A DNA stretch of 26,183 bases from Promethearchaeota archaeon (GTDB lineage: Archaea > Asgardarchaeota > Lokiarchaeia > Sigyniarchaeales > SOKP01), in contig JBHLMQ010000043.1 in assembly GCA_048938005.1 (NCBI GenBank), positions 1-26,183 of the forward strand, given 5' to 3'. Position 1 is the stretch's first letter. Every line of letters begins with the position of its first letter. The notes under the pieces are model-generated. The model was not told the origin of the DNA and did no database searches. It saw only the letters and a list, made by a program, of their open reading frames with translations. Below, piece by piece: positions 796-18,499 of the stretch. The position numbers were made by a program, and so were the translations under genes.

Positions 796-2109
796 TTAAT
801 GAGTAGCACACGAAATACAGGGATCAAAAGCTCTGATTATTCTCTGCACCTCTTTTTTCACTAAATTAATATCACCTGTTTTTTCAAATAATTCTTGAGC
901 ATGTTTCGTAATCATCTCATTAATAAGTGGAATATTAAACTCAGTAGCAATAAATAATTTTATTCGATCAATAGAATTACTTTCATTAAGGTGATAATGA
1001 TGAATTAATATCCCTCTAGGTGCTTCAATAATACCTATCCCATCCAGATTTGTTATTGAATTCAGAGGAGAAAATTTTTCTCTTATATTTAAAGAAGGAT
1101 CGTTTAAAATTTGTAATCCATGATAAGCTTCAATATACATTTCTAATAATCTAATAAAATTAGCAAATAATATATTGTTTTTCCATGATTTATTAAAATA
1201 ATCAAGATAGGTATGAACTTCATCAATTCCATAATCCTCGATAATATTATAACGGGAAAGGGGACCAACAATCACATTTTTTTTATTTTCAAAATAAAAA
1301 TCAATTCCACGTAAATCATTTTCTTTACCAAAATAGGCAGAATAGTTATTTTTTTCAAATTCTATCAAATTTTTATTGTTTTCTTTTATTCTTAAATTGC
1401 CTGAATAACGATCATAATTTTCATTGTTAGAAAGGCCAAGAAAAATAAAATGTGGAAAATAATATTCTTTTGGTGGTATTTGATTAGAAAACATTTCAAT
1501 AAATTTTTCTATAATCCATTCTAAATTGTTTAAAGCCTTTTGAAATTTCTTTTTAGCAAGTGAAATATTTTTTCTAAAAGGGGAATATATAACCCCTCCA
1601 GGGATAACTGAAATCAAATGAACAGACCTACCACCAAATAAATTATTTATTTCATTTCCAATTTTAATTAATTCATATAAATTTGATGCTAATTGAGGGT
1701 CATAATTAATTAATTCATAAGGAGTAAACGTTTTTTGACTAAAATCAAAAATTGCTAAGAGATCTGGTAAAGTTTGGAAGAAAAAATTCATAGAATGAGA
1801 TTTAATTAATTCTCCACTCATTAAAAGGTGTCTTAAAAGAATAGTTTGTTCTGAAACTTCGATGTTATATATATTTTCTATTGCTTTACAACTTGCGATC
1901 GCTTGAGAAGCATAACATAACCCACAAATTCGAGACACTATTTTTGGAATATCCAATAATTTTTTTCCGATTAAGAAATTTTCAAATCCTCGATATATTT
2001 CGAATTCAAAATTTACTAATGAAATATCATCATTCTGGAGTAAAATTTTTACATCTCCATGACCTTCAACTCGTTTGCAAACATCAATGACTTTTAACAA
2101 TCTTATCAC
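796..2109 (-). CDS. mvhA: [NiFe]-hydrogenase large subunit, group 3 (MvhA-like), with no C-terminal extension and a Gln in L1
   Basis: Motifs RVEGHG, L1 RICGLCYASQ, EAPRG and L2 RAFDPCISCATH followed directly by TAA. The start is GTG 2109 (overlapping the mvhG stop) or TTG 2100 after a GGTGA SD. Confidence 0.92.
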   Translation of the reverse strand: MIRLLKVIDVCKRVEGHGDVKILLQNDDISLVNFEFEIYRGFENFLIGKKLLDIPKIVSRICGLCYASQAIASCKAIENIYNIEVSEQTILLRHLLMSGELIKSHSMNFFFQTLPDLLAIFDFSQKTFTPYELINYDPQLASNLYELIKIGNEINNLFGGRSVHLISVIPGGVIYSPFRKNISLAKKKFQKALNNLEWIIEKFIEMFSNQIPPKEYYFPHFIFLGLSNNENYDRYSGNLRIKENNKNLIEFEKNNYSAYFGKENDLRGIDFYFENKKNVIVGPLSRYNIIEDYGIDEVHTYLDYFNKSWKNNILFANFIRLLEMYIEAYHGLQILNDPSLNIREKFSPLNSITNLDGIGIIEAPRGILIHHYHLNESNSIDRIKLFIATEFNIPLINEMITKHAQELFEKTGDINLVKKEVQRIIRAFDPCISCATH

Positions 2110-2864
2110 CTTCTAAATTTTGGTTTTGAATAGCGATAAAAAATACCAGTATAATCTTTTAATTCTTGAGATAAATTTATCAAGCTCAAATAATTAATAA
2201 GATTGGATGTAAAGTCTTTTGATACCGGGCCCATACATCCTTCGCATGGAAGCCCCATTTTTATGCATTTATATTCACAGCCATCACGAGTTATAGGACC
2301 TAAACATAAAATACCCTTTTCTAAAAAACATTCAGAATTTTCTTCATCTAGACTAATTTCTTCTGGATTTGGATTAATTTTCGAGATATTTATATGAGAA
2401 TTTATTTTCATATTCCCCTTTAATGAGCAATTAGCACACATGTTTTTCTCTGATAATATTATATCTTTATTCTCAACTAACCTGATTAGACTGTTTCCAA
2501 AAAGTTTAGAAGGAGGAGGACAACCAGGAATAATACCATCAATTTCAATATAATTAGAGATTGGATCTGCTACTTTTGAACTTGAAAGGCTTAAAATTCC
2601 TCCAAAACATGCACAGGTTCCCAAAGCATAAACTTTTTTTGCATGTTTTCGAACATCTTGAAGCACCGTTATTTGCGTTTCCTCAGAAACACAGCCTTCT
2701 ACTAAAGCAATATCTGAATCTTCAATATTTTTAGCATCTAAAATAAATTGAAAAAATATTATCCTTGTTCTCTCAAGGAATTGCGGAAAAATATCTAAAG
2801 AAATAAGAGTTGAGATGCACCCACTACAAGAAGTTAGAGAAATTATTATAACTCTAGGCTTCAA
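2106..2864 (-). CDS. mvhG: [NiFe]-hydrogenase small subunit (MvhG-like), about 252 aa
   Basis: Proximal-cluster motifs CSGC, VEG, GTCA and PGCPP. Distal Cys-rich region CANC...CFLEKGILCLGPITRDGC..KC...PCEGCMGP. Start moved from 2915 to TTG 2864, which follows an AGGAGG SD and gives MKPRVIIISLTSCSGC. Confidence 0.9.
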   Translation of the reverse strand: MKPRVIIISLTSCSGCISTLISLDIFPQFLERTRIIFFQFILDAKNIEDSDIALVEGCVSEETQITVLQDVRKHAKKVYALGTCACFGGILSLSSSKVADPISNYIEIDGIIPGCPPPSKLFGNSLIRLVENKDIILSEKNMCANCSLKGNMKINSHINISKINPNPEEISLDEENSECFLEKGILCLGPITRDGCEYKCIKMGLPCEGCMGPVSKDFTSNLINYLSLINLSQELKDYTGIFYRYSKPKFRR

Positions 2865-5403
2865 ACTTAATCTCCTCCTGTAATTTTTTATAAAATTTAT
2901 TTGAGATTTCAGCAAATCTATTACCCTCTACCGCATTCATATGTTCAATTACTATTCGATCTTTGTATTTCGGCGGTATAATATTTTTTAATAACTTAAT
3001 TTTGTTTTCTACTTTTTCGATTCCATCAATATATCGACAAGCATTTTGTCTACATCCAAATATCATTACTCCATCGAAACCGAGTTCAAATGATTTAATA
3101 ATAAAATTAGTATCAATACGTCCTGTACAAGGAACACGTACAATAAAAGTATTTGGATTATATGAAATTTTCTTAAGACCAGCATCATCAGCAGCGGCAT
3201 AACCACAAGAAGCACAACAAAATGCAATAATTTTTGGTTGCACTCTGAATTTTGAAAAAACTTTAATTGTTGCAAAAATCTTTTCAGAAGTGTCGATATT
3301 TAAATCTATTGCATTGGTAGGACAGACACTAACACAAGTACCACATCCCTTACATTTGAATTTATCTATACTTATTTTATCTGATTCTAATGTAATAGCA
3401 TTATAAGGACAAATTTTAACACAAAATCCACATAAACCACATTTATTTTCATCAATTTTAATTCCACTAAACTCTGCTATCAAATAATCTTTAGAAAGCA
3501 AAGAGATAATCTTTAAAGCACATTTATTAGCTGATGAAATTGTAGAATTATAATCTAATGGACCAAAGATAGTCCCAACTCCATAAATACCAGATGCTAA
3601 TGTATCTTCACTCATAAATCCATTATCATCTAGTGTAAAATCCATATATTTTCGAAAATTTGTTAAATCTTCATTAGGGATATATTTTAGATTTAATACT
3701 ATTAAATCGCTTGGAAATTCAATATTATCAGCAATAACATGATTTATATCTTTATTAGTTTCAATAGTAATTTGATTAGCATATAAAAATCTTGGATTTG
3801 TTGATCTTAACAAAATCTCTTCCTTATCTTTTAATTTACTTAAATCATAAAAAATATTGATTTCGCAATCAGGATTTCTTATCTTAATATCCTCAATATA
3901 TTTTTGCGCCAAAATTTCTGAGTAATTTGAAAGATATTTTGATGGACCAACCTCTTGGATAATAGAAATTGAGTTTATAGGTTTTTTATCTGATAATCTT
4001 ATAAGTTTTCCTTCAGTAATACCATCGTAAGATAATATACGTTCAAATTCTGGCGATGTTATTATATTATTTTGTGGATTATAGTGGTAATCCTCTAAAT
4101 CCCTATAAAAATCAGATCCAATAGCAATTACTTTACTGCCAACCTTGATTTCGAGTTTTTCTTCTTTTTGAGTTAAATCTATTGCTTTATTCACACACGC
4201 GCGTTCACAAATTCTACAATTAAGACAATTTTTTAGATCTTCTTCATCAATTAAAGGAATATATGGATATGAATGAATAAATGGGATATATATTATTTTT
4301 CGATTAGTTAAGCCAAATTCATATTGATTTGGTTTTTCTATACTACAAATTTCTATACAATGTTTACATCCAGTACATTTTTTTAAATCAATATAACGAG
4401 GTTTTTTAACCAAATTTAATGTGAAATTTCCTACTTCACCTGATACATTTTCAATATCAGTATTAGTAAAAATTTTTATATTTTTTTCATTCACTAATTC
4501 ACTTATTAATTCTGAAATAAAACATATTGAACAATCACCCATATTATGGATTCGATGCCATCTGGCTACCTTACCACCTAAAGTTGGTGATTTTTCAATT
4601 AGAAAAACTTTAATACCGGATCTTGCTAAATTTAAAGCAAGAGTTATACCTGCAATTCCGCCCCCTAAAATTGCACAGCTCTTTTCTATTTCAACTCTTT
4701 TAACTTCTATTTTTTTTTGAAGGTTTACACGTTCAATAGCAGCTTCAATTAATAACTTAGCTTTTTCTAATAAAAGTGAAGGATCTATTTGATTTATTTC
4801 AAACTGATGTGCCCAACAACATTGCTCTCTAATATTGGCTACTTCTATATTTGCACTGTCAATAACATTATCAAAAATTCGTTCAAAAAGATGTTGATGT
4901 GTTCTTGGAGAACATGCGGCTATTACAATTTTATTTAAAAAATTATCTTTAATCCATTGAGCAATTTTATTAAAATTCTTTTGTTGACATAAGTTCTCAA
5001 AAACTTTTACGGAAACTACTTTTTTTAACTTATTCACATAATTTTCAATTGCATTAATATTAATTATATTTGAAATTTCTGTATTACAAGTGCAAATTAT
5101 TACTCCAATTCGGCTTATTTCGCTTCCCTTTGAATCCAAATATTCGTCAATATTTTCGCCCGATAAAATTCTTTTATTAATATTAAGTATTTTAAGCACA
5201 CGTTTACCATCTTCAGTAAGAAAATATGATTTCCTATTTTTGCCTATTAATGAACTAATTTTTTTAAGATGAAAATTTAGTTGTCCCGTTGTTTCTAAAC
5301 CAAGTTTTTCCATTAAATCTGTATAGGGAATATAACCCTCCTTTTCTAATAATAATAAAATTTTTCTCCTAAATGGATGAGATAATATTGAATATATATC
5401 CAT
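2854..5403 (-). CDS. Winged helix-turn-helix :: degenerate HdrA :: MvhD fusion protein (849 aa)
   Basis: Residues 1-75 look like an ArsR-like wHTH (ILSHPFRRKILLLL...YTDLMEKLGL..TGQLNFHLKKI...YFLTEDG). HdrA motifs follow: IGVIICTC, AACSPRTH, NIREQCCWAH, GGGIAG, two 2x[4Fe-4S] domains and EFER. The C-terminal MvhD domain reads AFCCASCGYAAAD...RVPCTGRID...GCRQNACRY. Confidence 0.9.
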   Translation of the reverse strand: MDIYSILSHPFRRKILLLLEKEGYIPYTDLMEKLGLETTGQLNFHLKKISSLIGKNRKSYFLTEDGKRVLKILNINKRILSGENIDEYLDSKGSEISRIGVIICTCNTEISNIININAIENYVNKLKKVVSVKVFENLCQQKNFNKIAQWIKDNFLNKIVIAACSPRTHQHLFERIFDNVIDSANIEVANIREQCCWAHQFEINQIDPSLLLEKAKLLIEAAIERVNLQKKIEVKRVEIEKSCAILGGGIAGITLALNLARSGIKVFLIEKSPTLGGKVARWHRIHNMGDCSICFISELISELVNEKNIKIFTNTDIENVSGEVGNFTLNLVKKPRYIDLKKCTGCKHCIEICSIEKPNQYEFGLTNRKIIYIPFIHSYPYIPLIDEEDLKNCLNCRICERACVNKAIDLTQKEEKLEIKVGSKVIAIGSDFYRDLEDYHYNPQNNIITSPEFERILSYDGITEGKLIRLSDKKPINSISIIQEVGPSKYLSNYSEILAQKYIEDIKIRNPDCEINIFYDLSKLKDKEEILLRSTNPRFLYANQITIETNKDINHVIADNIEFPSDLIVLNLKYIPNEDLTNFRKYMDFTLDDNGFMSEDTLASGIYGVGTIFGPLDYNSTISSANKCALKIISLLSKDYLIAEFSGIKIDENKCGLCGFCVKICPYNAITLESDKISIDKFKCKGCGTCVSVCPTNAIDLNIDTSEKIFATIKVFSKFRVQPKIIAFCCASCGYAAADDAGLKKISYNPNTFIVRVPCTGRIDTNFIIKSFELGFDGVMIFGCRQNACRYIDGIEKVENKIKLLKNIIPPKYKDRIVIEHMNAVEGNRFAEISNKFYKKLQEEIKFEA

Positions 5404-5505: not shown

Positions 5506-6633
5506 TTAATATTTCCATGTTATCAATTTTTTTCTCATGTTTTTTTCCATTCTTACTATTTTTGATTGGGAGAATTGCGCAATTTTTTCTTTCATTTCCT
5601 TATGAGTAGAAGCATCCAAATTTAAAATTTTAATTACACCTGCCTTTATTACTTTATTCATTATTTCTTTTCCTTTTTTAGTGCGTATAATTACAGTTGT
5701 AAATTTATCTTGAGAGCCCAAACCTCCAAAAGAAATATCTGAGTAAATATTAGTGAAATCACCGCAAACACTACAAGCTGAGCGCATGTATTTTGTTAGT
5801 TTTTCAAAGGGTATATGGATAGTATTTTGAGAAGTTCCCTGATTCTTAAGGTTGATAATTAAATTTTCTTTAATGTTTAATCTTTCAATGTTTTTGAGTT
5901 TAAATTTAAATTCTTTTTCGAATTTCTCAACCCTTACTTTATCAAAAAAAAAATTCTCGTAGCAGAATAAGCCCAAACAAATTTCTATGTTTTCTGATGG
6001 AATAATCCCTAGATTTTGCATACACCTGATTGTATAGATCTGGCATGGTGTTCCAACTAATGCTAATTTCTTTAATTTATAATATCTTAATTTAGGTAAT
6101 GAGCGAGTATACGTGTGAAATTTTTGTACAGTATCTAACTGTGGAGATACGTCTAACGTAACACCTGAAGCTTTAATTAAATCTTCTTTACTTTTAGCGA
6201 GTATAGCTTCTCTAGAAAAAGGGGCTTTTGTTTTCGCAACAATTGCTCCATCAATCATTTTATTTTCTATTAAATAATTAATTATTGAGTTTACAACACC
6301 ACCATCTGTTCCATATTTCAAAAATTCTTTATCTGTGGCTTGGCAAGAATAAATTCTTTCTACAAATCCTAAAGGCATTGACGAAAAATCTGAAAAATTA
6401 AAAGTTTTATTGAGATCCGCGTCTAAAACGTGGGTCTGTGGACAAATAAGATAACAAATCCCACATTTAAGACACTTTTCTTTATTTATATATTCTGGAG
6501 GCAAATTTGGTTCCTTAAATCCAATTACCTCATTTTCAATTGAATTACAAAAACTTACGCACCCTCCACATTGCTGACAAATACCAGGCTTATGGACTTC
6601 TTCAATTAAATTATTAAAAGTTTTTATATTCAT
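5506..6633 (-). CDS. Coenzyme F420 hydrogenase/dehydrogenase beta-subunit family (FrhB-like) with an N-terminal ferredoxin domain
   Basis: CQQCGGCVSFC and CLKCGICYLICP, DGGVV, LVGTPCQI, GLFCYENF, CSVCGDFT..YSDISFGG. An AAGGGTGA SD lies upstream. Confidence 0.88.
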   Translation of the reverse strand: MNIKTFNNLIEEVHKPGICQQCGGCVSFCNSIENEVIGFKEPNLPPEYINKEKCLKCGICYLICPQTHVLDADLNKTFNFSDFSSMPLGFVERIYSCQATDKEFLKYGTDGGVVNSIINYLIENKMIDGAIVAKTKAPFSREAILAKSKEDLIKASGVTLDVSPQLDTVQKFHTYTRSLPKLRYYKLKKLALVGTPCQIYTIRCMQNLGIIPSENIEICLGLFCYENFFFDKVRVEKFEKEFKFKLKNIERLNIKENLIINLKNQGTSQNTIHIPFEKLTKYMRSACSVCGDFTNIYSDISFGGLGSQDKFTTVIIRTKKGKEIMNKVIKAGVIKILNLDASTHKEMKEKIAQFSQSKIVRMEKNMRKKLITWKY

Positions 6634-7074: not shown

Positions 7075-9111
7075 ATGTCTGAAAAACAGACCATTGTTAG
7101 AATAGGAGTATATATTTGTAGATGAGGAGTCAATATTGGTGCTAAAATTGATTGTGATATTATTAGAGATTATGTTGAGGCACTCCCTAATATAATTGTT
7201 GCTAGAGTAAATGATTTTACTTGTAGCGATCCAGGACAAAATATTATTAAAAATGATATTTTAGATTTAGACTTAAATCGAGTAGTTGTTGCAGCTTGTA
7301 CACCAAAAATTCATGAATCCACTTACCGAAAAGTGTTAACTGAAGCTGGTTTAAATCCATATTATTTTCAAATGGTTAATCTCCGCGAACATTGCTCTTT
7401 TGTATCCTCAGGTAATAAAAGAAATAACACAGAAAAAGCTATAAGATTAATACAAGCAGGAATAAACAGGGCACGAGAATTAGAAATTATTCCTCATAAA
7501 AAAATTTCAGTGAAAAAAGAAGTATTAATAATAGGAGCAGGAATTGCTGGGATGAATGCTGCATTAGATTTAGCAAATCAAGGGATAAAAGTCTATTTAG
7601 TCGAAATAGAAGCTACAATTGGTGGAAAAATGGCACAATTAGATCGAATTTATCCAACTGATGATTGTGCTATATGAGTTCTCGCTCCTATTATGGTCAG
7701 TACTTCAAAACATCCAAATATAACATTATTTACTTATAGTGAAGTCGTTGAATTCAGTGGCATCCCTGGGAATTATGATATTAAAATACGGAAAAAGCCC
7801 CGTTATATTGATGAAAAAAAATGTACTGGTTGTGGATTATGTACAACAAAATGTCCAATAAAAGTACCAAACGAATTTAACAGAGGTATTGGTGAGCGAA
7901 ATGCGATTTACATACCTTTCCCACAAGCAGTCCCAAAAGTTGCTCTAATTGATAAGAGTATATGTATAGGATGTAAAAATTGTCAAACAATTTGCCCCGC
8001 AGAAGCCATTGACTTAGACCAATCTTCAGAATATTTTGATTTCAAAGTTGGTGCAATAATTATAGCCACAGGATGGGATGAATATCCAATTATGAAAAAT
8101 AACGAATATAAATATGGTATTTATCCCGATGTAATTACTCAAATAGAGTTAGAACGTATGTTAAGTCCAGTTGGACCAACAGGAGGCCATGTATATAAAA
8201 TTTCTGACGGAAAAATCCCAAAAACAGTGGCTATGATTCAATGTGTGGGTTCAAGATCCTTAAAAGGGAATCCCTATTGCTCAGGAGTATGTTGTAATGT
8301 TGCTCTTAAAAATGCTCAATTATTAAAACAAGAATATCCTGATATAGATATTGCCATTTTTTATATAGATATGCGAACATGGGATAAAGGAAATGAAGAA
8401 TATTATAGAAAAGCGAGAGAAGCGGGGATAATGATGATTCGGGGAAAAGTAGGAGACATACGAGAAGAGCCAAATACAAAAAAACTAAAAATACGAGCTT
8501 CATCAACCTTAACAAATGATATTATTACAATGAATACAGATTTAGTTGTATTATCAACGGGTATGGTTCCTTCTAAAAATACTGCACAAATAGTTGAGAC
8601 TTTAAGTTTAGGCAAAGACATAAATGGGTTTTTAACTGAAGTTCATGGATGTTTAAAACCTCAAGAGACAAATAATATGGGCATTTATATATGTGGCTGT
8701 GCTGCTGGCCCTAAAAATATCCCTTATTCAGTATCTACAGCCCTAGCCGCAGCAAGTAAGGCATCTACATTACTTTCTAAAGAGACAATAAGTAAAGAAT
8801 TAATTATTGCTGAAATAAATGAATCTAAGTGTATGGGATGTCATAGATGCGAAAAACTCTGTAATTATAATGCTATAAAGATTAATGAAGAAAATATTGC
8901 TGAAGTAGATGATCTAAATTGTAAAGGTTGCGGGGTTTGTGTATCCTCATGTCCCGCTCATGCAATCGATCTCAAATATTATAGAGACAAACAAATTATT
9001 AAAGAAATAAAGGGGATCTTTAGTACTGACCTTGAATATAAGGAAGAATTTATTGAATCTATTGAACTAATTTGGAAAAAGATTGAAGCACTAGCTCCTC
9101 ATAATATATAA
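7075..9111 (+). CDS. hdrA: Heterodisulfide reductase subunit A, selenoprotein with two Sec (U17, U201), 678 aa
   Basis: ATG 7075 follows AAGGTGG. A single frame is interrupted only by TGA 7123-7125 (GVYICRUGVNIG) and TGA 7675-7677 (YPTDDCAIUVLAP). The paralogue at 10821..13934 has Cys at both sites (VCRCGTNIG, FPTLDCSLCILAP). This call merges track ORFs 7333..7677 and 7693..9111. Confidence 0.93.
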
Positions 9112-9117
9112 TGTAAA

Positions 9118-9161
9118 TTAGAATGATCCTTTCAAAAAAATGGTAGTTGAAGGGTAACTAA
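9118..9161 (+). promoter_or_regulatory. Candidate 3'-UTR SECIS element (eukaryote/Loki-like)
   Basis: TTAG-A-ATGA-T-CCTTTCAA-AAAAATGGTAG-TTGAAGGG-T-AA-CTAA. It has a lower stem TTAG/CTAA, an AUGA core, an 8-bp upper stem and an A-run at the 5' side of the loop. It starts 7 nt after the stop codon. The 3' core reads AA instead of the canonical GA. Confidence 0.65.
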
Positions 9162-9186: not shown

Positions 9187-10317
9187 TTATAATTGAGTAT
9201 TTGTTTTTAATGAAATTAATTTTTTATACCAATTAAGTTTCTTATTTATCCAATCTCGACTTTCGCTAGCTGCTACAATAAATTGTTCAATTAATCCATA
9301 AGAAAGAAGAGATTTGATTATTTTATGACCTATTTCTGTTCGAATAAGTATCATTGAATAATCTTTTGGTGCTCCAGATGATCCAATACTTATATCTGAA
9401 AATCGACCAGTAAATTCATTACATTCGTGGCAATGTTTTCTGATTGCAGGGTCTAGTTTTTTGATGTCTACTTCAATTTCTTCATTTTTTTTAGTAGATA
9501 TAAAAAAATTCTTCTTTATCCATGTTTTTTCAATATTAATTGGATTTACATTTACTTCTTTTCTTAAGATATCGAATAATTTGCTATAATCAAAATTTTC
9601 GAAACAAAAGAGACTTATAATATATTTAATAACATGAGCGGGTTTAATACGTAAAAAACGCATTTTGCTTATTGCTCTGCATTGACAAGGTGTGCCAACA
9701 AATGCCAAGCGTAATTGGTCTATGTCAAAAATCCTTCTTTTCCTGAAAATTTCTTGTGAAATATGATATAAATCCTTTAAAGGGATTATCTGAGAAGATA
9801 TGGAAAAGCGTGTCCCTGCTGATTTTAACAAATCATCTTTGTCAAATATAATTTTTGGAATTGGTTTAAAGTTTTTATCAAATTCCGAAACTATAGCGGC
9901 ATCAATCTTGTATTTATCAAATAGATAAGCTAGAATTGTTGAAACTACACCTCCATTTTGTCCAAGTTTCGCTATCGCAGCGTTTGTTGTTTTTGCTGCG
10001 AGAATTTTAATAATATGTCCAATTTTATCTTCAATTTTGTAAGCATTATTTAATTCTTTTAATAATGGGGAAGTTTGAGGACATATATAATAACATACAC
10101 CACATTCAGTACAATTATAGCCATTTTTTTCTGATTTAAACCTTGGTATATATTCATCCATTTCAATAACATCAAAATTTTGACTTTCACAATATGCTAC
10201 ACATGCAGCACAACTACAGCATTTATCAGTTTGTATAATTTCATTATCAAGGTCTTTAAAAGTTTTTAAATTAAAATCAATAAATTTTTTAGAATTTGAT
10301 TCAGTCATAATAACCAT
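9187..10317 (-). CDS. FrhB-like F420-dependent oxidoreductase beta subunit with an N-terminal ferredoxin domain (second copy)
   Basis: CCSCAACVAYC, CTECGVCYYICP, GQNGGVVS, FVGTPCQ, LFCFENF, CHECNEF..RFSDISIG. The start may be ATG 10308. Confidence 0.88.
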   Translation of the reverse strand: MVIMTESNSKKFIDFNLKTFKDLDNEIIQTDKCCSCAACVAYCESQNFDVIEMDEYIPRFKSEKNGYNCTECGVCYYICPQTSPLLKELNNAYKIEDKIGHIIKILAAKTTNAAIAKLGQNGGVVSTILAYLFDKYKIDAAIVSEFDKNFKPIPKIIFDKDDLLKSAGTRFSISSQIIPLKDLYHISQEIFRKRRIFDIDQLRLAFVGTPCQCRAISKMRFLRIKPAHVIKYIISLFCFENFDYSKLFDILRKEVNVNPINIEKTWIKKNFFISTKKNEEIEVDIKKLDPAIRKHCHECNEFTGRFSDISIGSSGAPKDYSMILIRTEIGHKIIKSLLSYGLIEQFIVAASESRDWINKKLNWYKKLISLKTNTQL

Positions 10318-10338
10318 CCTTTTATTTCTAATTTTTAA

Positions 10339-10818
10339 TTAATTACGTTTAAATTCCATTATTCCAAATTTTTTGGGGATTTTTGATTCCCCTAACTCTT
10401 TAATTGTTTTTGTAAATTCTATGATAAGCTCTGAAAATTGTTTCCCTTCGCTTGCTGAAATTGAGTATACCCGAAATCTCCCTTCCTCAATTCCGATCAT
10501 TTTTAATAAATTCTTTAAATGTTCCATTCTGATTAGCATATATTCAAAACCGTGTATATAATGACAATCACCCTTATGGCATCCAATAATTAATACACCA
10601 TCTATTCCATTATTAAAAGATCTTAAAATATATATAGGCTCAATTCTGCTTGAACACATTACTCTAACAATTCTAATGTTTGGAGGGTATTGGAATCTTG
10701 ATACTCCTGCTAAATCCGCTCCAGCATAACTACACCAATTACAGCAAAATACTAAAATAGTTGGTTCAAAATCTTTGATTAATCTTTTCTTAATTTTTAA
10801 CAAGTTATACTCACCCAT
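10339..10818 (-). CDS. mvhD: Hydrogenase [2Fe-2S] subunit MvhD (Cys form)
   Basis: FCCNWCSYAGADLAG, RVMCSSRI, GCHKGDCHY, ISASEG. Confidence 0.95.
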   Translation of the reverse strand: MGEYNLLKIKKRLIKDFEPTILVFCCNWCSYAGADLAGVSRFQYPPNIRIVRVMCSSRIEPIYILRSFNNGIDGVLIIGCHKGDCHYIHGFEYMLIRMEHLKNLLKMIGIEEGRFRVYSISASEGKQFSELIIEFTKTIKELGESKIPKKFGIMEFKRN

Positions 10819-10820
10819 CT

Positions 10821-13800
10821 TTAAGCAATATCATATATAGGTGATTCTATTCCTGGTAATAAATCAATCATCTGGTTAATTTGAAACTTGCTAAAATGAT
10901 TTTGATCTATAGCACCAACTGAGCATTCTGCAACACATCCTCCGCAACCTTTACAAACAGCTTTAATTACACGAGCTTTATGTATATTAATAGTATATAA
11001 ACCCATTTGTTTTGTAGTTTCATATAATTCGATGGCGTTATAAGGGCAAATTTCAGCACATCTACCGCATCCAATGCATTTATCTTCATTAATTTCAGAT
11101 GTTATACACTCAGCTTCTATTTCTCCTTTTATCATTAATATCGCTGCTCTACCAGCTGCCCCATATGCTTGAGTTATACTTTCACCAATCCATTTTGGCC
11201 AATGAGCCCCACCACATAAAAAAATACCTTCTGTTGCAAAATCTATTGGTCTAAGCTTTGCATCAGCTTCTAAAAAAAAACCATCTTTATTTGTTGGAAC
11301 TTTCAACAATTTCGCTAATTGTTCAGTTCCTTCGGCAGGGACTTTAGGGGTGGCTAATATTAATAAATCAACATTATATTCTAAGTCTGTTCCAGCACCA
11401 ATGTTTTTATATCTTATATGAAATTTGCCATTTTCGTCGCTGATTTTAATATCATCAATTGAATTGTATTTCTCATACGTAACTTTTTGTCGAAGATTTC
11501 GCCATAGATTTTCAGCATTTAAATCTGAAAATTGAAACTCTCTATATAAAACATGAATATGTGCTTTTGGGTTGATATTTAACAATTTCTCGATATTTTT
11601 TAATGCTACTCCACAACAAATATTAGAACAATAGGTTTTTATATTATCTCCATTATTATATTGGTTCCTCCTTTGATCTACGCATAGTATTATTAAAGCA
11701 TCATTAAATCTAGGAATATCTTCATCCTTAGTAGATGTTAATTCTGTTTGGGTTAAGACCTGTTTGGGATATCTTTCTGATAAATAGGACCATCGATTTG
11801 TCTTTATTTGCTTGGTTCCCGTAGCTACAATTATAGTACCTACTTTGAATAATTGATCTTCTGAATTTTTTTGGAGATTTCTAACTTTAACTTGATAATT
11901 TCCAACATAACCTTGAATATCAACAACTAGAGAGTTTAATAAAATATGAACATTAGAATTATTCTTCAAATCATTAATTTTCTGTAAAATTTGAGTTTTC
12001 GTAATAGGTATATAATATAAATCAATAAATTCGATTGCCACTCCTCCAAGTAAAGATTTCTTATCTACAAGATAAACTTCAAATCCTTGGTTCGCTAAAT
12101 TATGTGCAGCAGTTATTCCTGCTATTCCGCCACCAATTATTAAAGATGATTTTATAACTTTAACTTTAATAATATCTAACGGTTTTAAATTAATTACTTT
12201 TCCCAAATACATTCTAATTAAATCGCATGCTTTTTTCGTTGCCATTTCAGGCTCTTTTTGATGAACCCAAGAATCTTGGTTTCTTATATTTACTAGCTCA
12301 AATAAAAATGGATTCAAACCAACTTCTTTTAAAGTACTCCTAAATAATTGTTCATGTGTTCTAGGAGTACAAGAAGCGACTATAAATCTATTAAGATTAT
12401 ATTTTATGATTAAGTCTTTAATACGTTCTTGGGAATCAGAGCTACAAGAATACATATTTTCCTCAACATGAACAACATAAGGCAATTTAGAAACATAATT
12501 TACTACTTCAGAAACATTAACAATGCCTCCGATATTAGTACCACATCGACAAACTAAAATACCTACTCGAGGTGTATCCTCAGGTGTTATTGTTATTTCT
12601 GGAGGATATTTAATTTTTTTTATTTTTTGAAATCTAACAGAGTATAATTTTTCACTAATTTTAGCCGCACATGCAGAACCTTCAGCAACGGCCATTTGAA
12701 TATCATTTGGTTTTCTAGAATAACCAGTTACAAATATATTCTTTCTTTCAAGTAAGATTATATCTTTTTCACGAATATAGCCTAAATCATTAGAATTCAC
12801 ATTCAGTTGTTTTAAAAGTTTATAATAAGAAGGAGTTGGAGATAATGCACTAGCTAATACAGCCATATCCACTTCAAAAGTTCCAACTTTCCCTCTGTCA
12901 ACGTCCTCGAAATATAGTTTTAATTTCCCGTTAGCTAAATTCCCTTTGATATATGAAACGCGACCATTAATATATTTAACCTTATATTCATATTTACTTT
13001 TTTCAATAAACTCATAAAAGCTCTTCCCTTTAGCTCTGATTTCTGTATTAAAAATATAACATTCAATATTTGGATCATGTTCTTTAACAACAATAGCTTC
13101 TTTAGCTGAATTCATACAGCATATAGCAGAACAATATTTTTTACATCCAGAATGATGAACGTTCCGAGAACCTACACATTGTATAAAAGCAATTGATTGA
13201 GGACGTTTTTTATCATCTAATTTTATAATTTGCCCACCGGTAGGTCCATTTGCAGATAATAAGCGTTCAAATTGCATACTAGACAAGACATTTGGGGAAT
13301 CACCCGCGAAATTAGTATATATTTCTGGCATTTCTTGGCTCTCTCCTGTAGCAATAACAATAGCACCTACATTTAATGTTATTTCTTCTGGTTTTTGGAA
13401 AAAATCTATAGCGTCAGCATTACAAGCATTAGCACAAATTCCACATATTCGAAAATTCAAATATAAACAATTTGTATCATCAATAAGATATACTGGAGGT
13501 ACTGATGATGGAAAAGGAATATATATACTTTCTCGAGTTTTTAAATGGGTATCAAATTCGCTAGGAATTCCTTTAACTGGACAAATTTTTGCGCAATCTC
13601 CACATCCTTTACAAACATCTTCTTTTATATATCTTGGCTTTCTTATAACTAATATTGTGTAATTCCCTGCACATCCTCTAATTTTTTTAACATAAGAATA
13701 AGTAAATAACTCAATATTTGGATTTCTATACACATCAACCATTTTAGGAGCTAAAATACACAAACTGCAATCAAGTGTAGGAAATATTTTATCTAATTGA

Positions 13801-13934
13801 GCCATAGTTCCTCCAATTGTAGGTTTAATTTCAACTAGATATACTTTAAACCCTAACTTAGTGAGGTCTAATGATGCCTGTATACCAGCTATTCCACCCC
13901 CGATAACTAAAACATTACTCTGCAGTTTTTGCAT
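10821..13934 (-). CDS. hdrA: Large HdrA-like protein with two FAD-binding modules (1037 aa)
   Basis: Two GGGIAG Rossmann motifs and two cluster motifs (QCVGSR..YCSAICC; LCVDQR..YCSNICC). The HdrA N-terminal domain (GILVCRCGTNI, ASCTPRTH) sits in the middle, and there is a C-terminal 2x[4Fe-4S] domain. Confidence 0.9.
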   Translation of the reverse strand: MQKLQSNVLVIGGGIAGIQASLDLTKLGFKVYLVEIKPTIGGTMAQLDKIFPTLDCSLCILAPKMVDVYRNPNIELFTYSYVKKIRGCAGNYTILVIRKPRYIKEDVCKGCGDCAKICPVKGIPSEFDTHLKTRESIYIPFPSSVPPVYLIDDTNCLYLNFRICGICANACNADAIDFFQKPEEITLNVGAIVIATGESQEMPEIYTNFAGDSPNVLSSMQFERLLSANGPTGGQIIKLDDKKRPQSIAFIQCVGSRNVHHSGCKKYCSAICCMNSAKEAIVVKEHDPNIECYIFNTEIRAKGKSFYEFIEKSKYEYKVKYINGRVSYIKGNLANGKLKLYFEDVDRGKVGTFEVDMAVLASALSPTPSYYKLLKQLNVNSNDLGYIREKDIILLERKNIFVTGYSRKPNDIQMAVAEGSACAAKISEKLYSVRFQKIKKIKYPPEITITPEDTPRVGILVCRCGTNIGGIVNVSEVVNYVSKLPYVVHVEENMYSCSSDSQERIKDLIIKYNLNRFIVASCTPRTHEQLFRSTLKEVGLNPFLFELVNIRNQDSWVHQKEPEMATKKACDLIRMYLGKVINLKPLDIIKVKVIKSSLIIGGGIAGITAAHNLANQGFEVYLVDKKSLLGGVAIEFIDLYYIPITKTQILQKINDLKNNSNVHILLNSLVVDIQGYVGNYQVKVRNLQKNSEDQLFKVGTIIVATGTKQIKTNRWSYLSERYPKQVLTQTELTSTKDEDIPRFNDALIILCVDQRRNQYNNGDNIKTYCSNICCGVALKNIEKLLNINPKAHIHVLYREFQFSDLNAENLWRNLRQKVTYEKYNSIDDIKISDENGKFHIRYKNIGAGTDLEYNVDLLILATPKVPAEGTEQLAKLLKVPTNKDGFFLEADAKLRPIDFATEGIFLCGGAHWPKWIGESITQAYGAAGRAAILMIKGEIEAECITSEINEDKCIGCGRCAEICPYNAIELYETTKQMGLYTINIHKARVIKAVCKGCGGCVAECSVGAIDQNHFSKFQINQMIDLLPGIESPIYDIA

Positions 13935-13989
13935 TTTTTAATCATCATAAAATATTATTTATTTAACAAATCGAGTTTTCACAATGTAT

Positions 13990-15246
13990 TTAAACAAGAA
14001 AAAGCAATTTTCCTATAAAGCTTGCTAAATCCATCACCTTTATATTGTTTCTTAGATCTTTTTTCTCTTCATTTGAAGAAGGTTCGTTTAGATAACAATT
14101 GAAATGTGTCAAACATTTTGGACAACAAACAATTAAGTATTCCGCGCTAGTATTAATTGCTTCATTTATACGATTTTGCCTTAAAAAGCGTGAATATTCA
14201 TTACAATTTAGAAATGTTGCGACGCCACAACAATTAGCATCATCTTTAATATTATCCATTTCTATCAATTCAACTCCTGGAATTTGTCGTATCAATTCTC
14301 TTGGAGCGTCATATAATTTTCCACCTAAACGTCCCATTCGACAAGAGTCATGATATGTTACCTTAATCTCAGAACTTTGAGGAAATTTAACATATTCAAG
14401 AATTTTTTCTTTTAAAAAAAATTCAGAATAATGAAAAACTTTGAAATCAAAACCATCTACTATTTTTGGATAATCATATTTCCATATTCTATATCCTTCA
14501 GCACATCCAACTATAACAATTTTTACTCCAGCATCCTTATAAAGCTGGGTATTATATTCAGCAAATTTTATAAAAGTTTCAATATCGCCCTCACCCCATA
14601 AAATATCATGGCCACAGCATTTTTCATTTAAAACTACCGGTACAATATTGGCCTCATTAAGTAAGCTTATTATCGTTATGGGTATTTCGGTATAATTACA
14701 TTTAAAATTATAAAAAATTTCTTCCATTAAAGGCAAACATCCAATAAAATAAGCAATTTCGCCTGAATCTGCTGTTTTTAGCTCTTTTTCTTCCAAAAAA
14801 TCTAATTTATTTGGATTTATTGGATTATTTGCTGTCATTTTCGAAATTAAGGGTACAATTTCATTATGAGTTTCACACTGAGTAATTCTATCAATTTGAA
14901 TTTTACTATTTCTTGATGCCTTTCTCAATTCTAAGATTAAATCAGGTATTCTTACTCCTAAATTCTCTTGAGTCATTGGACAATATATTGAACATTGACC
15001 ACATGTAAGGCAATTCCATATATTATGATTAGTTAAGACTTCTTCTATTGGATATAAGATTAAATCTCCTACCAATTTTCGTGGAAAAAATACGTCTAAA
15101 TGCGAAAGTGGACACACATTTACACATCGATTGCAGGCAAAACAATAATTTGCCATTGAAATTACATTTTTAATAGTTACCCCTAAGTTTTGAAAGTTAG
15201 AATTACTACACTTAATTTCATTGTTAATATAAGAAGACATAGACAA
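13990..15246 (-). CDS. HdrD-like Fe-S oxidoreductase (4Fe-4S dicluster plus two CCG domains)
   Basis: CFACNRCVNVCP, CLTCGQCSIYCP, KCCGH, GCAEG, YHDSCRMGR, NCCG, CCPKC. The start is TTG 15246 or ATG 15240. Confidence 0.88.
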   Translation of the reverse strand: MSMSSYINNEIKCSNSNFQNLGVTIKNVISMANYCFACNRCVNVCPLSHLDVFFPRKLVGDLILYPIEEVLTNHNIWNCLTCGQCSIYCPMTQENLGVRIPDLILELRKASRNSKIQIDRITQCETHNEIVPLISKMTANNPINPNKLDFLEEKELKTADSGEIAYFIGCLPLMEEIFYNFKCNYTEIPITIISLLNEANIVPVVLNEKCCGHDILWGEGDIETFIKFAEYNTQLYKDAGVKIVIVGCAEGYRIWKYDYPKIVDGFDFKVFHYSEFFLKEKILEYVKFPQSSEIKVTYHDSCRMGRLGGKLYDAPRELIRQIPGVELIEMDNIKDDANCCGVATFLNCNEYSRFLRQNRINEAINTSAEYLIVCCPKCLTHFNCYLNEPSSNEEKKDLRNNIKVMDLASFIGKLLFLV

Positions 15247-16184: not shown

Positions 16185-16814
16185 ATGGAAGTATTAGAAT
16201 TAAAACCAATAAAAAACAAAAGTATATGTATATATTTAATAGAAAAATCGAGATTTAATTTTCTACTCAATGATATTGAAAATTTAAATGAATTAATACA
16301 TAAGAATGATATTAACTTTATTACAATTGATATAGATGGCGAAGATTTCAAAAAGTTCAAAAATTCAAGTTTTTCAAAGGTTCTCAATGCTTTAAATATA
16401 GAATATTATCTATTAGATATGCCTGAGTATGCATATGGATATATATATGAAGAAATAGTGAGAAAAGAAGAACAAGTTAGTGAATTATTACATGAATATC
16501 AAAATATGATTGATAAAGACTCTTTTAAATGCCTAAACTTAAAATCCTGGATTGATGTTCTTAAGAACGAAATAATACAGGACAAAAATATTTTAGAATT
16601 AAAAATAAGACCACAATGGATTGTTAAAAAAATTTTAAATTTAGTTAAAAAACAAAAAAATGAGAATATTTCTCTAATTCATTTTGCTCATGAAAAAATT
16701 ATTTCAGAAACAATTAAGCAATTAAATGAGCTTCATATAGAAGTAATTTTTTATGACTTTAATTGTATTTACAATATCCCATATTTAATTATAAAACAAG
16801 GGGAGAGTAATTAA
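16185..16814 (+). CDS. Hypothetical protein, paralogous to the N-terminal domain of the downstream gene
   Basis: Starts MEVLELKPIKNKS versus MEVLELKPLKKKS, with colinear similarity throughout. TAATG stop/start overlap with the next gene. Confidence 0.8.
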   Translation: MEVLELKPIKNKSICIYLIEKSRFNFLLNDIENLNELIHKNDINFITIDIDGEDFKKFKNSSFSKVLNALNIEYYLLDMPEYAYGYIYEEIVRKEEQVSELLHEYQNMIDKDSFKCLNLKSWIDVLKNEIIQDKNILELKIRPQWIVKKILNLVKKQKNENISLIHFAHEKIISETIKQLNELHIEVIFYDFNCIYNIPYLIIKQGESN

Positions 16815-18499
16815 TGGAAGTTTTAGAATTAAAACCTTTGAAGAAAAAAAGTTTGAAATTGGTATTGATAGAAAGTGAATTTCCAATAGAGTGGTGGTTT
16901 GAGACATCAGCACAGAAAAAGCATGATTTAGTATGGAATTTACATCTAATTTCGAAGGAATACCTTAATCTAATTAAAGATCTCATAGCAAAATATAATC
17001 CTGATTTTGCTGTCGAGGAGAAAGGAAGTCGATGGGAAGATACAATATCTCACGATGATCCTTTAGAAACATTATTCAGGGAATATAAAATCCCATATAA
17101 AATGGTAGATATTTCAGAAAATGCAGAAAATTATCTTTCCTCGAATTTGGAAGATCACAGACAACTTATAAAGCAATTAATAATATCAATTAAAGATATT
17201 AAAAAGAGTAATGATAAAAACTTTCCAAAAGATGATTTTGAGTTTCAGAGAATGGTTTTATGGAAGGAATATTTGCAGCAAGAATACAACCTTCAAGAAA
17301 ATGAAATAAGATATAATGTTCGTGAAGCTTGGATGATGATGGGAATTATAAAATTTGCAAAGAAAATGATTGAAAAAAAATTGAAAGCATTCTTTATCTG
17401 TGATCATAGGCATTTCAAAGGTATCACTAAATTAGCAGAAGATTTAGGCATTCAAACCGAAGAAATAAGAATCAAACGGTTAGCAAAAGTTATAAATAAT
17501 CCTGGTTCTAATTCCATTAATACTATAATTGGCAAATCTATACTTGAATTATCTCCAATTAAAGTGAAAAAGAATGAATCACTAGAAAAAATTTGTTACT
17601 TTTTTGATACTGATGATAATGCTTCTCCTTTCGATATAAATATGGCTTATGATGCTGGTTTTGATGTTGTTATCCCTATTAGTAAGATGACTGCTGAGCA
17701 AGTCCCAAAGCTAGTACAGGATGCCATTTTTTCACGTAAGCCAAAAGCACCCACAACATTTTTTATTGGCGGTTCTAATGTTAAAGAAGGAGAGGAAATA
17801 GCTAAAAGAGTTATAAAATCGTTAATAAGCCCATTTGAATGTCCAGTGATTATTGATCCTCGTGGTTCTCACACCACAGCCTCTTCAATCGTTGCTAAAA
17901 CTATTCAAGTCGCAAGGGAACTTGATCTATATGATTTAAAAGGTAAAAAAGTAGTTATTTTTGGAGCAGGACCAGTTGGAAGAATAGCAGCTATACTAGC
18001 AGCAAAATTAAAATGTACAACTTATCTAGTAGAAACATGGGAAAAATCCAGTGAACAATCTATTAAAAAATTGGCAAAAGAATTAATGGAAGAAGCTGGA
18101 GAAAATGCTACAGAAATTGTGGGTATTTTTGCACCAAACGATGAAAAAAAATTAGAAATAATAAAAGATGCAGATATTATTTGGTCACTTGCTGCTGCTG
18201 GAGTACAAATATTATCAAAAAGTTTAATGCTTAAACTTAAAAATAAAATTCTAATTGATATAAATTTAGTTCCTCCTTATGGAATTGAAGGATTAAAGCC
18301 AAAAGATGATAACAAAGAGATCTATCCAACTATATACGGAATTGGCGCTTTAGCTTTAGGGCGTTTGAAATCTAATATTGAGGCAAATATACTTAAAGAA
18401 GCATCAAATAGTAAGGGAAAAAAAATTTTTGATTATAATTATGCTTTTGAACAAGCAAAGAAGATCTTGTTAGGAAATGAAATAAAAATCTCTGCTTAA
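16814..18499 (+). CDS. Unknown N-terminal domain (about 245 aa) fused to NAD(P)-dependent methylene-tetrahydromethanopterin dehydrogenase (MtdA/MtdB family)
   Basis: SPFDINMAYDAGFD, QDAIFSR, FIGG, DPRGSHTTA, GAGPVG, AAAGVQI, DINLVPPYGIEG and GIGALALG are MtdA/B family motifs. Confidence 0.88.
   Translation: MEVLELKPLKKKSLKLVLIESEFPIEWWFETSAQKKHDLVWNLHLISKEYLNLIKDLIAKYNPDFAVEEKGSRWEDTISHDDPLETLFREYKIPYKMVDISENAENYLSSNLEDHRQLIKQLIISIKDIKKSNDKNFPKDDFEFQRMVLWKEYLQQEYNLQENEIRYNVREAWMMMGIIKFAKKMIEKKLKAFFICDHRHFKGITKLAEDLGIQTEEIRIKRLAKVINNPGSNSINTIIGKSILELSPIKVKKNESLEKICYFFDTDDNASPFDINMAYDAGFDVVIPISKMTAEQVPKLVQDAIFSRKPKAPTTFFIGGSNVKEGEEIAKRVIKSLISPFECPVIIDPRGSHTTASSIVAKTIQVARELDLYDLKGKKVVIFGAGPVGRIAAILAAKLKCTTYLVETWEKSSEQSIKKLAKELMEEAGENATEIVGIFAPNDEKKLEIIKDADIIWSLAAAGVQILSKSLMLKLKNKILIDINLVPPYGIEGLKPKDDNKEIYPTIYGIGALALGRLKSNIEANILKEASNSKGKKIFDYNYAFEQAKKILLGNEIKISA

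Follow-up and report, generated by a model that had tools for sequence, protein, structure and literature searches.

Electron routes through HdrA have been described for several Hdr-type complexes. Electrons enter from MvhD by way of the C-terminal ferredoxin domain; the low-potential exit leads to the N-terminal cluster (with Cys197 of the partner) and then to the inserted ferredoxin domain, and the [4Fe-4S] cluster of the thioredoxin-reductase (TrxR) domain is the route from flavin adenine dinucleotide (FAD) toward HdrBC that the high-potential electron takes (PMC9012536, cited from excerpts, as are the other reports named below). The same high-potential path through this cluster is given in PMC13518236, the high-potential electron is described as travelling 'via HA4' in PMC12350162, and cluster E4 in the TrxR domain of BamE is named as the high-potential exit in bioRxiv 10.64898/2026.04.10.717634. 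Here we describe a gene whose product, P0001, joins a winged helix-turn-helix (wHTH), HdrA and MvhD in one polypeptide and has lost the cysteine ligands of that TrxR-domain cluster. The gene lies in a contig of 26,183 nucleotides from Promethearchaeota archaeon (JBHLMQ010000043.1), the whole of which is called the window below. The window is AT-rich, and its close relatives are metagenome-assembled genomes labelled Promethearchaeota or Lokiarchaeota in public records.

Several departures from the methanogen arrangement are already on record. HdrA-MvhD fusions (type Ia, or HdrA2) and reduced HdrA classes are known in methane-metabolising archaea (PMC12054007), multiple and fused HdrAs have been noted for Lokiarchaeota and Thorarchaeota (PMC11237513), and Loki seleno-HdrAs have been described (PMC4989117). 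In genome papers, the Mvh-type hydrogenases of Asgard archaea are routinely taken for 'MvhADG-HdrABC' enzymes that bifurcate or confurcate (PMC7015854; PMC11291895). A full-text literature search of a limited paper collection, without supplements, found no description of an N-terminal winged helix on HdrA or of cluster loss in Asgard hydrogenase operons.

An HdrA fusion that has lost one cluster motif

P0001 and its parts occupy the following positions in the window.

2854..5403, minus strand: whole gene, wHTH + HdrA + MvhD fusion, 849 aa (open reading frame and translation)
5179..5403, minus strand: residues 1-75, ArsR-like wHTH (Pfam PF24038, DUF7347)
3259..5118, minus strand: residues 96-715, HdrA core (phmmer to 8rvu_a and 5odc_A; structure match 5odi_A)
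2857..3258, minus strand: residues 716-849, fused MvhD (FlpD) with a [2Fe-2S]-type cysteine set (PF02662)
3901..3960, minus strand: residues 482-501, former C...CxxxCC motif of the TrxR-domain [4Fe-4S] cluster (alignment with PDB HdrA)

Residues 95-714 align with HdrA of solved Hdr complexes (phmmer against PDB chains; 8rvu_a, E 2.4e-107; 5odc_A, E 2.9e-106), and this core consists of the N-terminal cluster domain, an FAD-binding thioredoxin-reductase fold, an inserted ferredoxin domain and a C-terminal ferredoxin domain. In Pfam, the FAD/Rossmann match begins at residue 242 and Fer4 covers residues 648-700. The FlpD/MvhD domain (PF02662) is found at residues 725-843 with 116.5 bits (cut-off 22.3), and residues 721-842 match PDB MvhD chains with E of 1e-23 to 1e-24. 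At the other end of the protein, DUF7347 (PF24038) is found at residues 2-71 with 36.6 bits (cut-off 27.6). The top NCBIfam match is HdrA2 (NF040770; residues 98-843) at 575.9 bits, under its cut-off of 1100, and other NCBIfam HdrA models are also under theirs (NF041891, 421 against 1300; NF041778, 373 against 1400).

The segment that held the cluster motif now reads IQEVGPSKYLSNYSEILAQK, corresponding to residues 482-501 and window positions 3901-3960 on the minus strand. An earlier note on this DNA had located the site correctly at 3902..3960, one base short of its true span. When P0001 is aligned by phmmer with the PDB HdrA chains, E484, L491, S495 and E496 occupy the four ligand cysteine positions, which bears out the changes from C to E, C to L and CC to SE that the note had read from the sequence. 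The P0001 line of this alignment is 'siiqevgp......skylsnyseilaqk', with a loop six residues shorter than in the HdrA structures. The seleno-HdrA encoded in the window (7075-9111, with TGA read as U) keeps the motif as the note had quoted it, IQCVGSRSLKGNPYCSGVCCNVALK, and both halves of a 1037-aa double HdrA in the window also retain the cysteines.

Everything else that the note had listed as retained is present. The N-terminal ligands C104, C106, C139 and C164, together with the C291/C294 pair, the 16 cysteines of the two ferredoxin domains (eight each, in four CxxCxxCxxxC motifs), the MvhD cysteines and the GGGIAG sequence are all in place. K501 and E454 of P0001 are the equivalents of K409 and E356, the offsets agreeing after the six-residue gap is counted; in HdrA of M. 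thermolithotrophicus the latter residues form a flavin-stabilising pair described as a hallmark of bifurcating HdrA flavins (PMC12054007). The safe statement on selectivity is that one cluster of seven has been eliminated and six have been kept. By simple arithmetic, the chance that four random losses among 32 ligand positions would empty one whole cluster is ∼2 in 10,000, a figure to be read with the proviso that losses are not independent after the first.

Candidates for a compensating ligand were rejected in turn: C195 is common to cluster-retaining relatives and the seleno-HdrA, C513 occurs also in a cluster-retaining Asgard family (f18), and C243 is present in only 109 of 120 orthologues. 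The idea that residues 482-493 had regained a glycine motif for NAD(P) binding was rejected as well, the motif being absent and the loop varying freely.

Conservation of the loss and selection on the gene

The orthologue set comprised the best 120 of 781 matches from a search of 5.8 billion proteins, which are 67-91% identical and mostly exactly 849 aa long. At the four motif positions, 89 orthologues have no cysteine, 31 have the first cysteine only, and none has more than one; the 22 full-length genome loci repeat this pattern. At position 496, where the CC pair once had its second cysteine, 111/120 orthologues have Asp or Glu. Ligand cysteines outside the motif are invariant at 26 of 28 positions, the exceptions being C687 (119/120) and C729 (116/120). 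Conservation is thus complete (120/120) for each of C104, C106, C139, C164, C291 and C294 and for C730, C733, C759, C784 and C789 of the MvhD domain, and the 16 ferredoxin-domain cysteines are found in 119-120 of 120 sequences. K501 and E454 are both present in 120/120.

All 23 full-length coding sequences align over 849 codons without an indel, and the ratio of nonsynonymous to synonymous divergence (dN/dS) for closest pairs of the fusion gene is 0.06-0.24 by the Nei-Gojobori method. Regional values of the corresponding pN/pS ratio, pooled over 205 pairs with dS < 1.5, were as follows.

Whole gene: 0.19
Linker (22 residues): 0.097, the lowest region
Winged helix: 0.106, the second lowest region
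Other domains: 0.13-0.28
Residues 482-501: 0.447, the highest region

The fusion gene is therefore under purifying selection throughout, with relaxed constraint only at the former cluster site, which rules out decay. Relaxed selection along the whole gene was not found, and the earlier note's description of a selective loss, as opposed to random decay, holds (dN/dS 0.06-0.24; pN/pS 0.19 for the whole gene versus 0.45 at the motif). That P0001 is a decaying pseudogene, or an artefact of assembly or annotation, is scarcely credible. Beyond the missing cysteines nothing favors this explanation, and it would have to accommodate an 849-codon reading frame intact in 23/23 full-length loci without indels, dN/dS far below 1, the same state in 120 protein clusters from several public sources, and fusion-gene DNA in 20 DNA records from 7 studies (a listing of sequencing runs in which no RNA record appeared).

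Twelve positions are specific to the clade, and five of these fall within residues 462-496, namely P462, G473 and three of the four cysteine positions. Cysteine position 484 missed the clade-specific filter because 31/120 orthologues keep a cysteine there. In the Cys-less clade, the proline after the last cysteine of both inserted-ferredoxin motifs is also replaced (P to S; P to V/I). The replaced prolines and residue 496 are located as follows.

Residue 354: window 4342-4344, replaced inserted-ferredoxin proline
Residue 404: window 4192-4194, replaced inserted-ferredoxin proline
Residue 496: window 3916-3918, former ligand position

The proline replacements and the acidic residue at 496 may be co-adaptations of the remaining electron path.

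Structure model and flavin site

An AlphaFold2 (AF2) model of P0001, made from a 40-sequence alignment, has a mean predicted local distance difference test score (pLDDT) of 87.4. It matches HdrA 5odi_A with Z 45.1 and a root-mean-square deviation of 3.5 over 606 residues (VIA-align), at 30-33% identity to HdrA structures, and residues 241-638 match the HdrA-like protein of a sulfur oxidiser, 6tjr_A, at Z 33.6. The former motif region (residues 478-509) is predicted to form a strand-loop-helix with pLDDT ∼85. Columns that are invariant over 40 HdrA-type sequences are all kept in P0001 (G247, G249, G252, G276, G277, G605, G610, E454 and K501). Binding of FAD, which the earlier note had considered probable, is plausible given these columns and the Z of 45 between model and HdrA. 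Because the flavin site and the other ligand sets are kept under purifying selection, we regard P0001 as still a working redox protein.

The hydrogenase operon

Two hydrogenase genes lie immediately downstream of the fusion gene.

2106..2863, minus strand: [NiFe]-hydrogenase small subunit, MvhG-like (PF01058)
796..2109, minus strand: [NiFe]-hydrogenase large subunit, MvhA-like, with RICGLC and C-terminal DPCISCATH (PF00374)

The likely start of mvhG is TTG at 2863, with GGAGG 8 nt upstream, which produces a 10-nt overlap with the fusion gene (2854-2863); the listed start at TTG 2915 is probably too far upstream. The overlap suggests translational coupling of mvhG to the fusion gene. Both NiFe ligand motifs were found in 31 related loci with a complete open reading frame. 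Among 32 orthologous loci, 27 have enough downstream DNA, and in 27/27 the fusion gene is followed by mvhG itself or by mvhA at an mvhG-sized gap (with mvhG itself listed in 8 of these 27, reflecting the overlap filter). The same gene order is seen in 11/11 loci from other Asgard families, whether or not they retain the cluster. No HdrB-like, HdrC-like or CCG-domain gene was found in the fusion operon in the 32 + 11 loci. In the window, an HdrC/B fusion is encoded 8.6 kb away in another operon.

Deeper homologues and order of events

In an exhaustive profile-free search of 1.84 billion representatives, the close orthologues form a single 50% cluster. The next matches are 781-845 aa long with 37-40% identity, and align from residue 1, thus including the winged helix. 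The wHTH-HdrA-MvhD relatives P0124, P0125, P0126 and P0129 keep C...CSxxCC, and P0128, a 530-aa fragment, is without the cysteine motif. Across 301 genomes of the phylum there are roughly 60 full-length matches to P0001, spread over several families. Families f14, f18 and f9 retain all four cysteines in the same fusion and the same operon, families f21 and f3 keep one, and family f1, to which the present genome belongs, has none or one. Retention of the motif in orthologous fusions, which the earlier note would have counted against its view, is thus not seen among the close orthologues (0/120 with more than one cysteine) but is seen in distant fusions, which are 36-51% identical to P0001.

In a quick maximum-likelihood tree, the winged-helix family is monophyletic with respect to HdrA-MvhD fusions that lack the wHTH (Shimodaira-Hasegawa-like approximate likelihood-ratio test, SH-aLRT, 100), and f21, P0128 and f1 form one clade (SH-aLRT 91) nested inside cluster-retaining lineages. 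Cluster-complete homologues already have the fusion and the operon, and the winged-helix fusion therefore predates cluster loss. On the basis of this tree, the loss was probably a single event, an assignment that we treat as provisional.

Loss of the HdrA cysteine motif is rare, yet not unique to the P0001 lineage. Among 57 single-length HdrA-type representatives within the top 150 matches, P0240 alone is also without the motif in the alignment, and P0258 has it behind an insertion. P0240 is a 630-aa unrelated HdrA-like representative with neither wHTH nor MvhD, and its loss appears to be independent. As a separate observation, one f18 genome (G050, contigs C257 and C88; loci L059 and L060) carries two paralogous wHTH-HdrA-MvhD/mvhG/mvhA operons, both with the full cysteine motif.

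A proposed hydrogenase flavoprotein cut off from HdrBC

We propose that wHTH-HdrA-MvhD, MvhG and MvhA make up a [NiFe]-hydrogenase module of three genes, found across several Asgard families, in which P0001 is the flavin/iron-sulfur subunit. In the lineage comprising f1, f21 and f3, this subunit lost its TrxR-domain [4Fe-4S] cluster, probably once. The remaining chain would run from the hydrogenase through MvhD, the C-terminal ferredoxin domain, FAD and the N-terminal cluster to the inserted ferredoxin domain, with the third branch gone. FAD would then be left with two iron-sulfur-wired partners, one of which would be the inserted ferredoxin domain, reached via the N-terminal cluster. If the missing cluster had in P0001 the role that the literature assigns to it in related proteins, the electron exit toward HdrBC has been removed, as the earlier note had maintained and in agreement with PMC9012536, PMC13518236, PMC12350162 and 10.64898/2026.04.10.717634. 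We are confident, short of certainty, that P0001 remains active as a redox subunit but has lost the connection to HdrBC that this cluster provided, and the hydrogenase of this lineage probably cannot work the textbook way. The likeliest task for such a subunit would be an HdrBC-independent link between H2/H+ and ferredoxin, operating in either direction, and heterodisulfide-coupled bifurcation through P0001 would be excluded under this proposal. For the specific linear H2-ferredoxin function, its direction included, we put the chances at about even.

A number of observations weigh against this proposal. The bifurcation-type Lys/Glu pair is invariant, though a linear wire from H2 to ferredoxin does not obviously need such a flavin, which hints that flavin chemistry beyond that of a stepping stone is still in use. 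Cluster-retaining deeper homologues are also without adjoining hdrBC genes, and HdrC was therefore never established as the partner of the cluster in this family; with ∼25 CCG-domain genes in the genome, the partner could be encoded elsewhere. The single-loss tree is the provisional product of a quick search, with SH-aLRT 91 at the relevant node and a long-branched fragment (P0128) included. Moreover, the strongly conserved winged helix is left unexplained; it may have a regulatory side-role or bind DNA as a moonlighting function.

A possible new partner at the flavin

The invariance of K501 and E454 (120/120), residues described as bifurcation hallmarks (PMC12054007), could instead mean that bifurcation or confurcation persists with a new high- or mid-potential partner acting at FAD, such as NAD(P)H, F420H2 or a docking flavoprotein. 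One candidate partner is encoded next to the fusion gene.

5506..6633, minus strand: FrhB/FdhB-like flavo-FeS protein, directly upstream of the fusion gene (PF04432, PF04422)

Among the orthologous loci (L001-L032), the FrhB-like gene is found ∼100 nt upstream in many, and this proximity would suit a partner; FrhB1 is missing from many loci, however, and so lies outside the conserved core. The other candidate is a 561-aa MtdA-like protein. A protein of ∼560 aa with an Mpt_N domain adjoins the operon in f14, f9 and f21, and in the present window it is encoded 11 kb off; the Mtd-like gene is linked to cluster-retaining relatives too, and so does not track the loss. F420H2 is reportedly used by Methanosarcina HdrA2, although that protein shows no recognisable site for it (PMC12054007), and clade-specific changes gather near the vacated site. 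Nonetheless, residues 482-493 vary freely and hold no conserved dinucleotide-binding glycine motif. We consider persistence of bifurcation with a new partner unlikely, if worth keeping in mind, and give the same low standing to its more specific form, in which the FrhB-like neighbor or the MtdA-like protein would make the complex, for example, an H2/ferredoxin/NAD(P) or F420 confurcating hydrogenase. An HdrBC-independent hydrogenase flavoprotein remains our preferred account of P0001.

The 561-aa protein is encoded within 16185-18499 on the plus strand, and a 270-aa N-terminal part without a family is followed by the MtdA-like part (Mpt_N plus an NAD-binding domain). A 209-aa open reading frame without a family match precedes its gene. 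Homologues of the MtdA-like protein (L045:4028-5722, L054:4173-5870 and L051:3948-5630) are encoded directly downstream of mvhA in two families (f14, f9), whereas in f21 the gene lies upstream of the fusion gene and points away from it. The MtdA-like gene is linked to this hydrogenase operon across Asgard families.

The winged helix

In the AF2 model, the winged helix has the classical order of elements, H-H-E-H-H-E-E-H, and is tethered by a linker of low confidence (pLDDT < 50 at residues 85-94). It scores above the Pfam cut-off for DUF7347 and below that of the NCBIfam ArsR model HTH_metalloreg (23.5 versus 55). Its top PDB match is a putative ArsR-type repressor (1y0u) in a weak alignment (E 0.036) that spans the helix 'gqlnfhlkk', and the Atlas clusters closest to it contain free-standing archaeal ArsR/DUF7347 proteins of 80-110 aa, at scores of 0.83-0.86 that serve as a lead only. 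These likenesses, the tether and a pN/pS of 0.106, among the two lowest regions, would fit a regulator that reports on redox state or H2. The hydrogenase would load the FAD/FeS chain, the redox state of the chain would control DNA binding by the winged helix, and turnover would be vestigial, much as in the redox-reporting pseudoenzyme of the earlier note.

We do not follow the earlier note on this point. The winged-helix fusion is monophyletic and older than the cluster loss, and its cluster-complete members share the operon. All other electron-transfer ligands are kept, the output ferredoxin domain included, and mvhG and mvhA invariably come after the fusion gene, their NiFe motifs intact, with a suggested translational coupling to these structural genes. 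The winged helix of BamF is described as a protein interface and not a DNA binder (10.64898/2026.04.10.717634). Furthermore, no shared palindrome was seen in 31 upstream regions read by eye, which showed only Shine-Dalgarno-like GGAGG and AT-rich promoter-like stretches. The term pseudoenzyme also fits poorly with a protein that has kept its flavin-site residues and the ligands of six of its seven metal clusters, one relay cluster being gone. A regulator of this kind is thus rather improbable. Somewhat more doubtful still is a one-polypeptide H2/redox sensor loaded by the hydrogenase, in which MvhAG would set the FAD/FeS state and the winged helix would turn that state into transcriptional control; equally doubtful is its corollary that, in the Cys-less lineage, a moonlighting enzyme came to serve mainly in signalling once its high-potential exit was removed. 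Were the sensor real, Hdr parts would have given rise to an archaeal equivalent of the regulatory hydrogenases of bacteria. Whichever role the winged helix has, an HdrA to which one is fused offers a comparison of DNA-binding and scaffold functions.

Other Hdr and hydrogenase genes

A second operon of the window contains further Hdr components.

9187-15246, minus strand: HdrC/B fusion (CCG domains), 1037-aa double HdrA, MvhD and FrhB-like protein

The double HdrA is encoded at 10821-13934 and the HdrC/B fusion at 13990-15246. The genes for the seleno-HdrA, the double HdrA and HdrC/B lie within 10 kb in the majority of close orthologous loci, and the motif is intact in the window's two other HdrAs. 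P0001 might accordingly be the hydrogenase-docking protomer of a hetero-oligomer, paired with the seleno-HdrA or the double HdrA, with the partner keeping the cluster and binding the HdrC/B fusion. For anaerobic methanotrophic (ANME) archaea, it has been proposed that HdrA paralogues in tandem or in fusions carry losses that complement each other (PMC9012536). Unlike the ANME pattern, however, P0001 keeps its N-terminal domain and C294 (the C197-type position), and is thus self-complementary for a homodimer. More distant Cys-less orthologues (L019-L024) and f21 are also without these neighbors. We give little credence to such a hetero-oligomer, and retain the view that P0001 acts within its own three-gene hydrogenase module.

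The composition of the second operon recalls the F420H2-dependent input arm of Elp-Hdr/Fdh-Hdr, with its FdhB-like and MvhD-like components (PMC12350162). The seleno-HdrA gene (7075-9111, plus strand) can be read through only if two in-frame TGA codons are taken as selenocysteine; the resulting residues are U17, part of a CxU motif, and U201, which occupies the C197-type position. Starting 12 nt after its stop codon, AUGA is followed by an 8-bp stem with an 11-nt loop (9123-9154). This stem-loop fits the description of 'lokiSECIS' (PMC4989117) in shape, with a fold z-score of only -0.5, and no Rfam family reached the gathering score in the whole window. The seleno-HdrA gene is without a downstream VhuD gene, unlike all pairs described in the excerpts of PMC4989117.

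The genome as a whole has ∼25 CCG-domain genes and encodes three [NiFe] large subunits. One of the large subunits belongs to a second Mvh-type cluster (L056:6176-10511, contig C9), which encodes a 440-aa extended small subunit, the large subunit, HdrC (168 aa) and HdrB (292 aa). This cluster has no adjoining hdrA gene, and so is the mirror image of the fusion operon, which has hdrA without hdrBC. The third [NiFe] enzyme, on contig C23, has NAD-binding and Fer4_22 partners.

Implications and comparison with known systems

The way in which Asgard archaea metabolise hydrogen has a central place in current thinking on syntrophy and eukaryogenesis. Across a large lineage of Lokiarchaeia, the HdrA that is joined to the hydrogenase adaptor has lost the one cluster by which the flavin is known to be connected with HdrBC. 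If our proposal is correct, the energetics assumed for this hydrogenase in these organisms would need revision as to its heterodisulfide partner, its bifurcation and the direction in which H2 flows.

With methanogen HdrA (of MvhADG-HdrABC, Elp-Hdr and Fdh-Hdr; 5ODC, 8RVU and 7BKB), P0001 shares the four-domain fold, the FAD site and the Lys/Glu pair there, the N-terminal cluster together with a C197-type cysteine, the two ferredoxin domains, and MvhD as the adaptor to a [NiFe] hydrogenase. It differs in having no TrxR-domain cluster toward HdrC, MvhD fused at the C-terminus, a winged helix at the N-terminus and an operon without hdrBC. The hydrogenase itself resembles the known Mvh type, its large subunit having RxCGxC and DPCxxCxxH and its small subunit an Oxidored_q6 domain. 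Methanosarcina HdrA2 (NF040770; 'type Ia') has the same layout of HdrA with a C-terminal MvhD (PMC12054007). Unlike P0001, HdrA2-type representatives without a wHTH keep the cysteine motif. HdrA2 of Methanosarcina reportedly works with HdrB2C2 and has no attached hydrogenase genes.

The known reduced HdrA classes (sHdr-type, 'A0' and 'A9-TRX-C') lost whole domains, whereas P0001 lost one cluster from an otherwise complete protein. Together with the sHdr HdrA-like subunit (6TJR), the classes 'A0' and 'A9-TRX-C' are precedents for reduced cofactor sets (PMC12054007). BamE and BamF of class II benzoyl-CoA reductase have HdrA-type wiring, and one FAD of that complex was judged non-bifurcating and mainly structural (bioRxiv 10.64898/2026.04.10.717634). 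BamF, an MvhD-like adaptor, contains a winged helix-turn-helix, whereas that of P0001 sits at the N-terminus of HdrA. The BamE/BamF system is bacterial, has no hydrogenase, and places a cluster next to both TrxR domains, unlike the TrxR domain of P0001. Residues 1-75 match the DUF7347 profile and have an ArsR-like topology; they differ from ArsR/SmtB regulators in being fused to a 770-aa redox protein, and their score with the NCBIfam ArsR model is below its cut-off. The closest relatives outside the Cys-less lineage are the deeper wHTH-HdrA-MvhD homologues (f14, f18 and f9; P0124-P0126 and P0129), which have the same three-part fusion as P0001 but keep the four cysteines, so that cluster-less and cluster-retaining orthologues in the same operon context provide a natural comparison.

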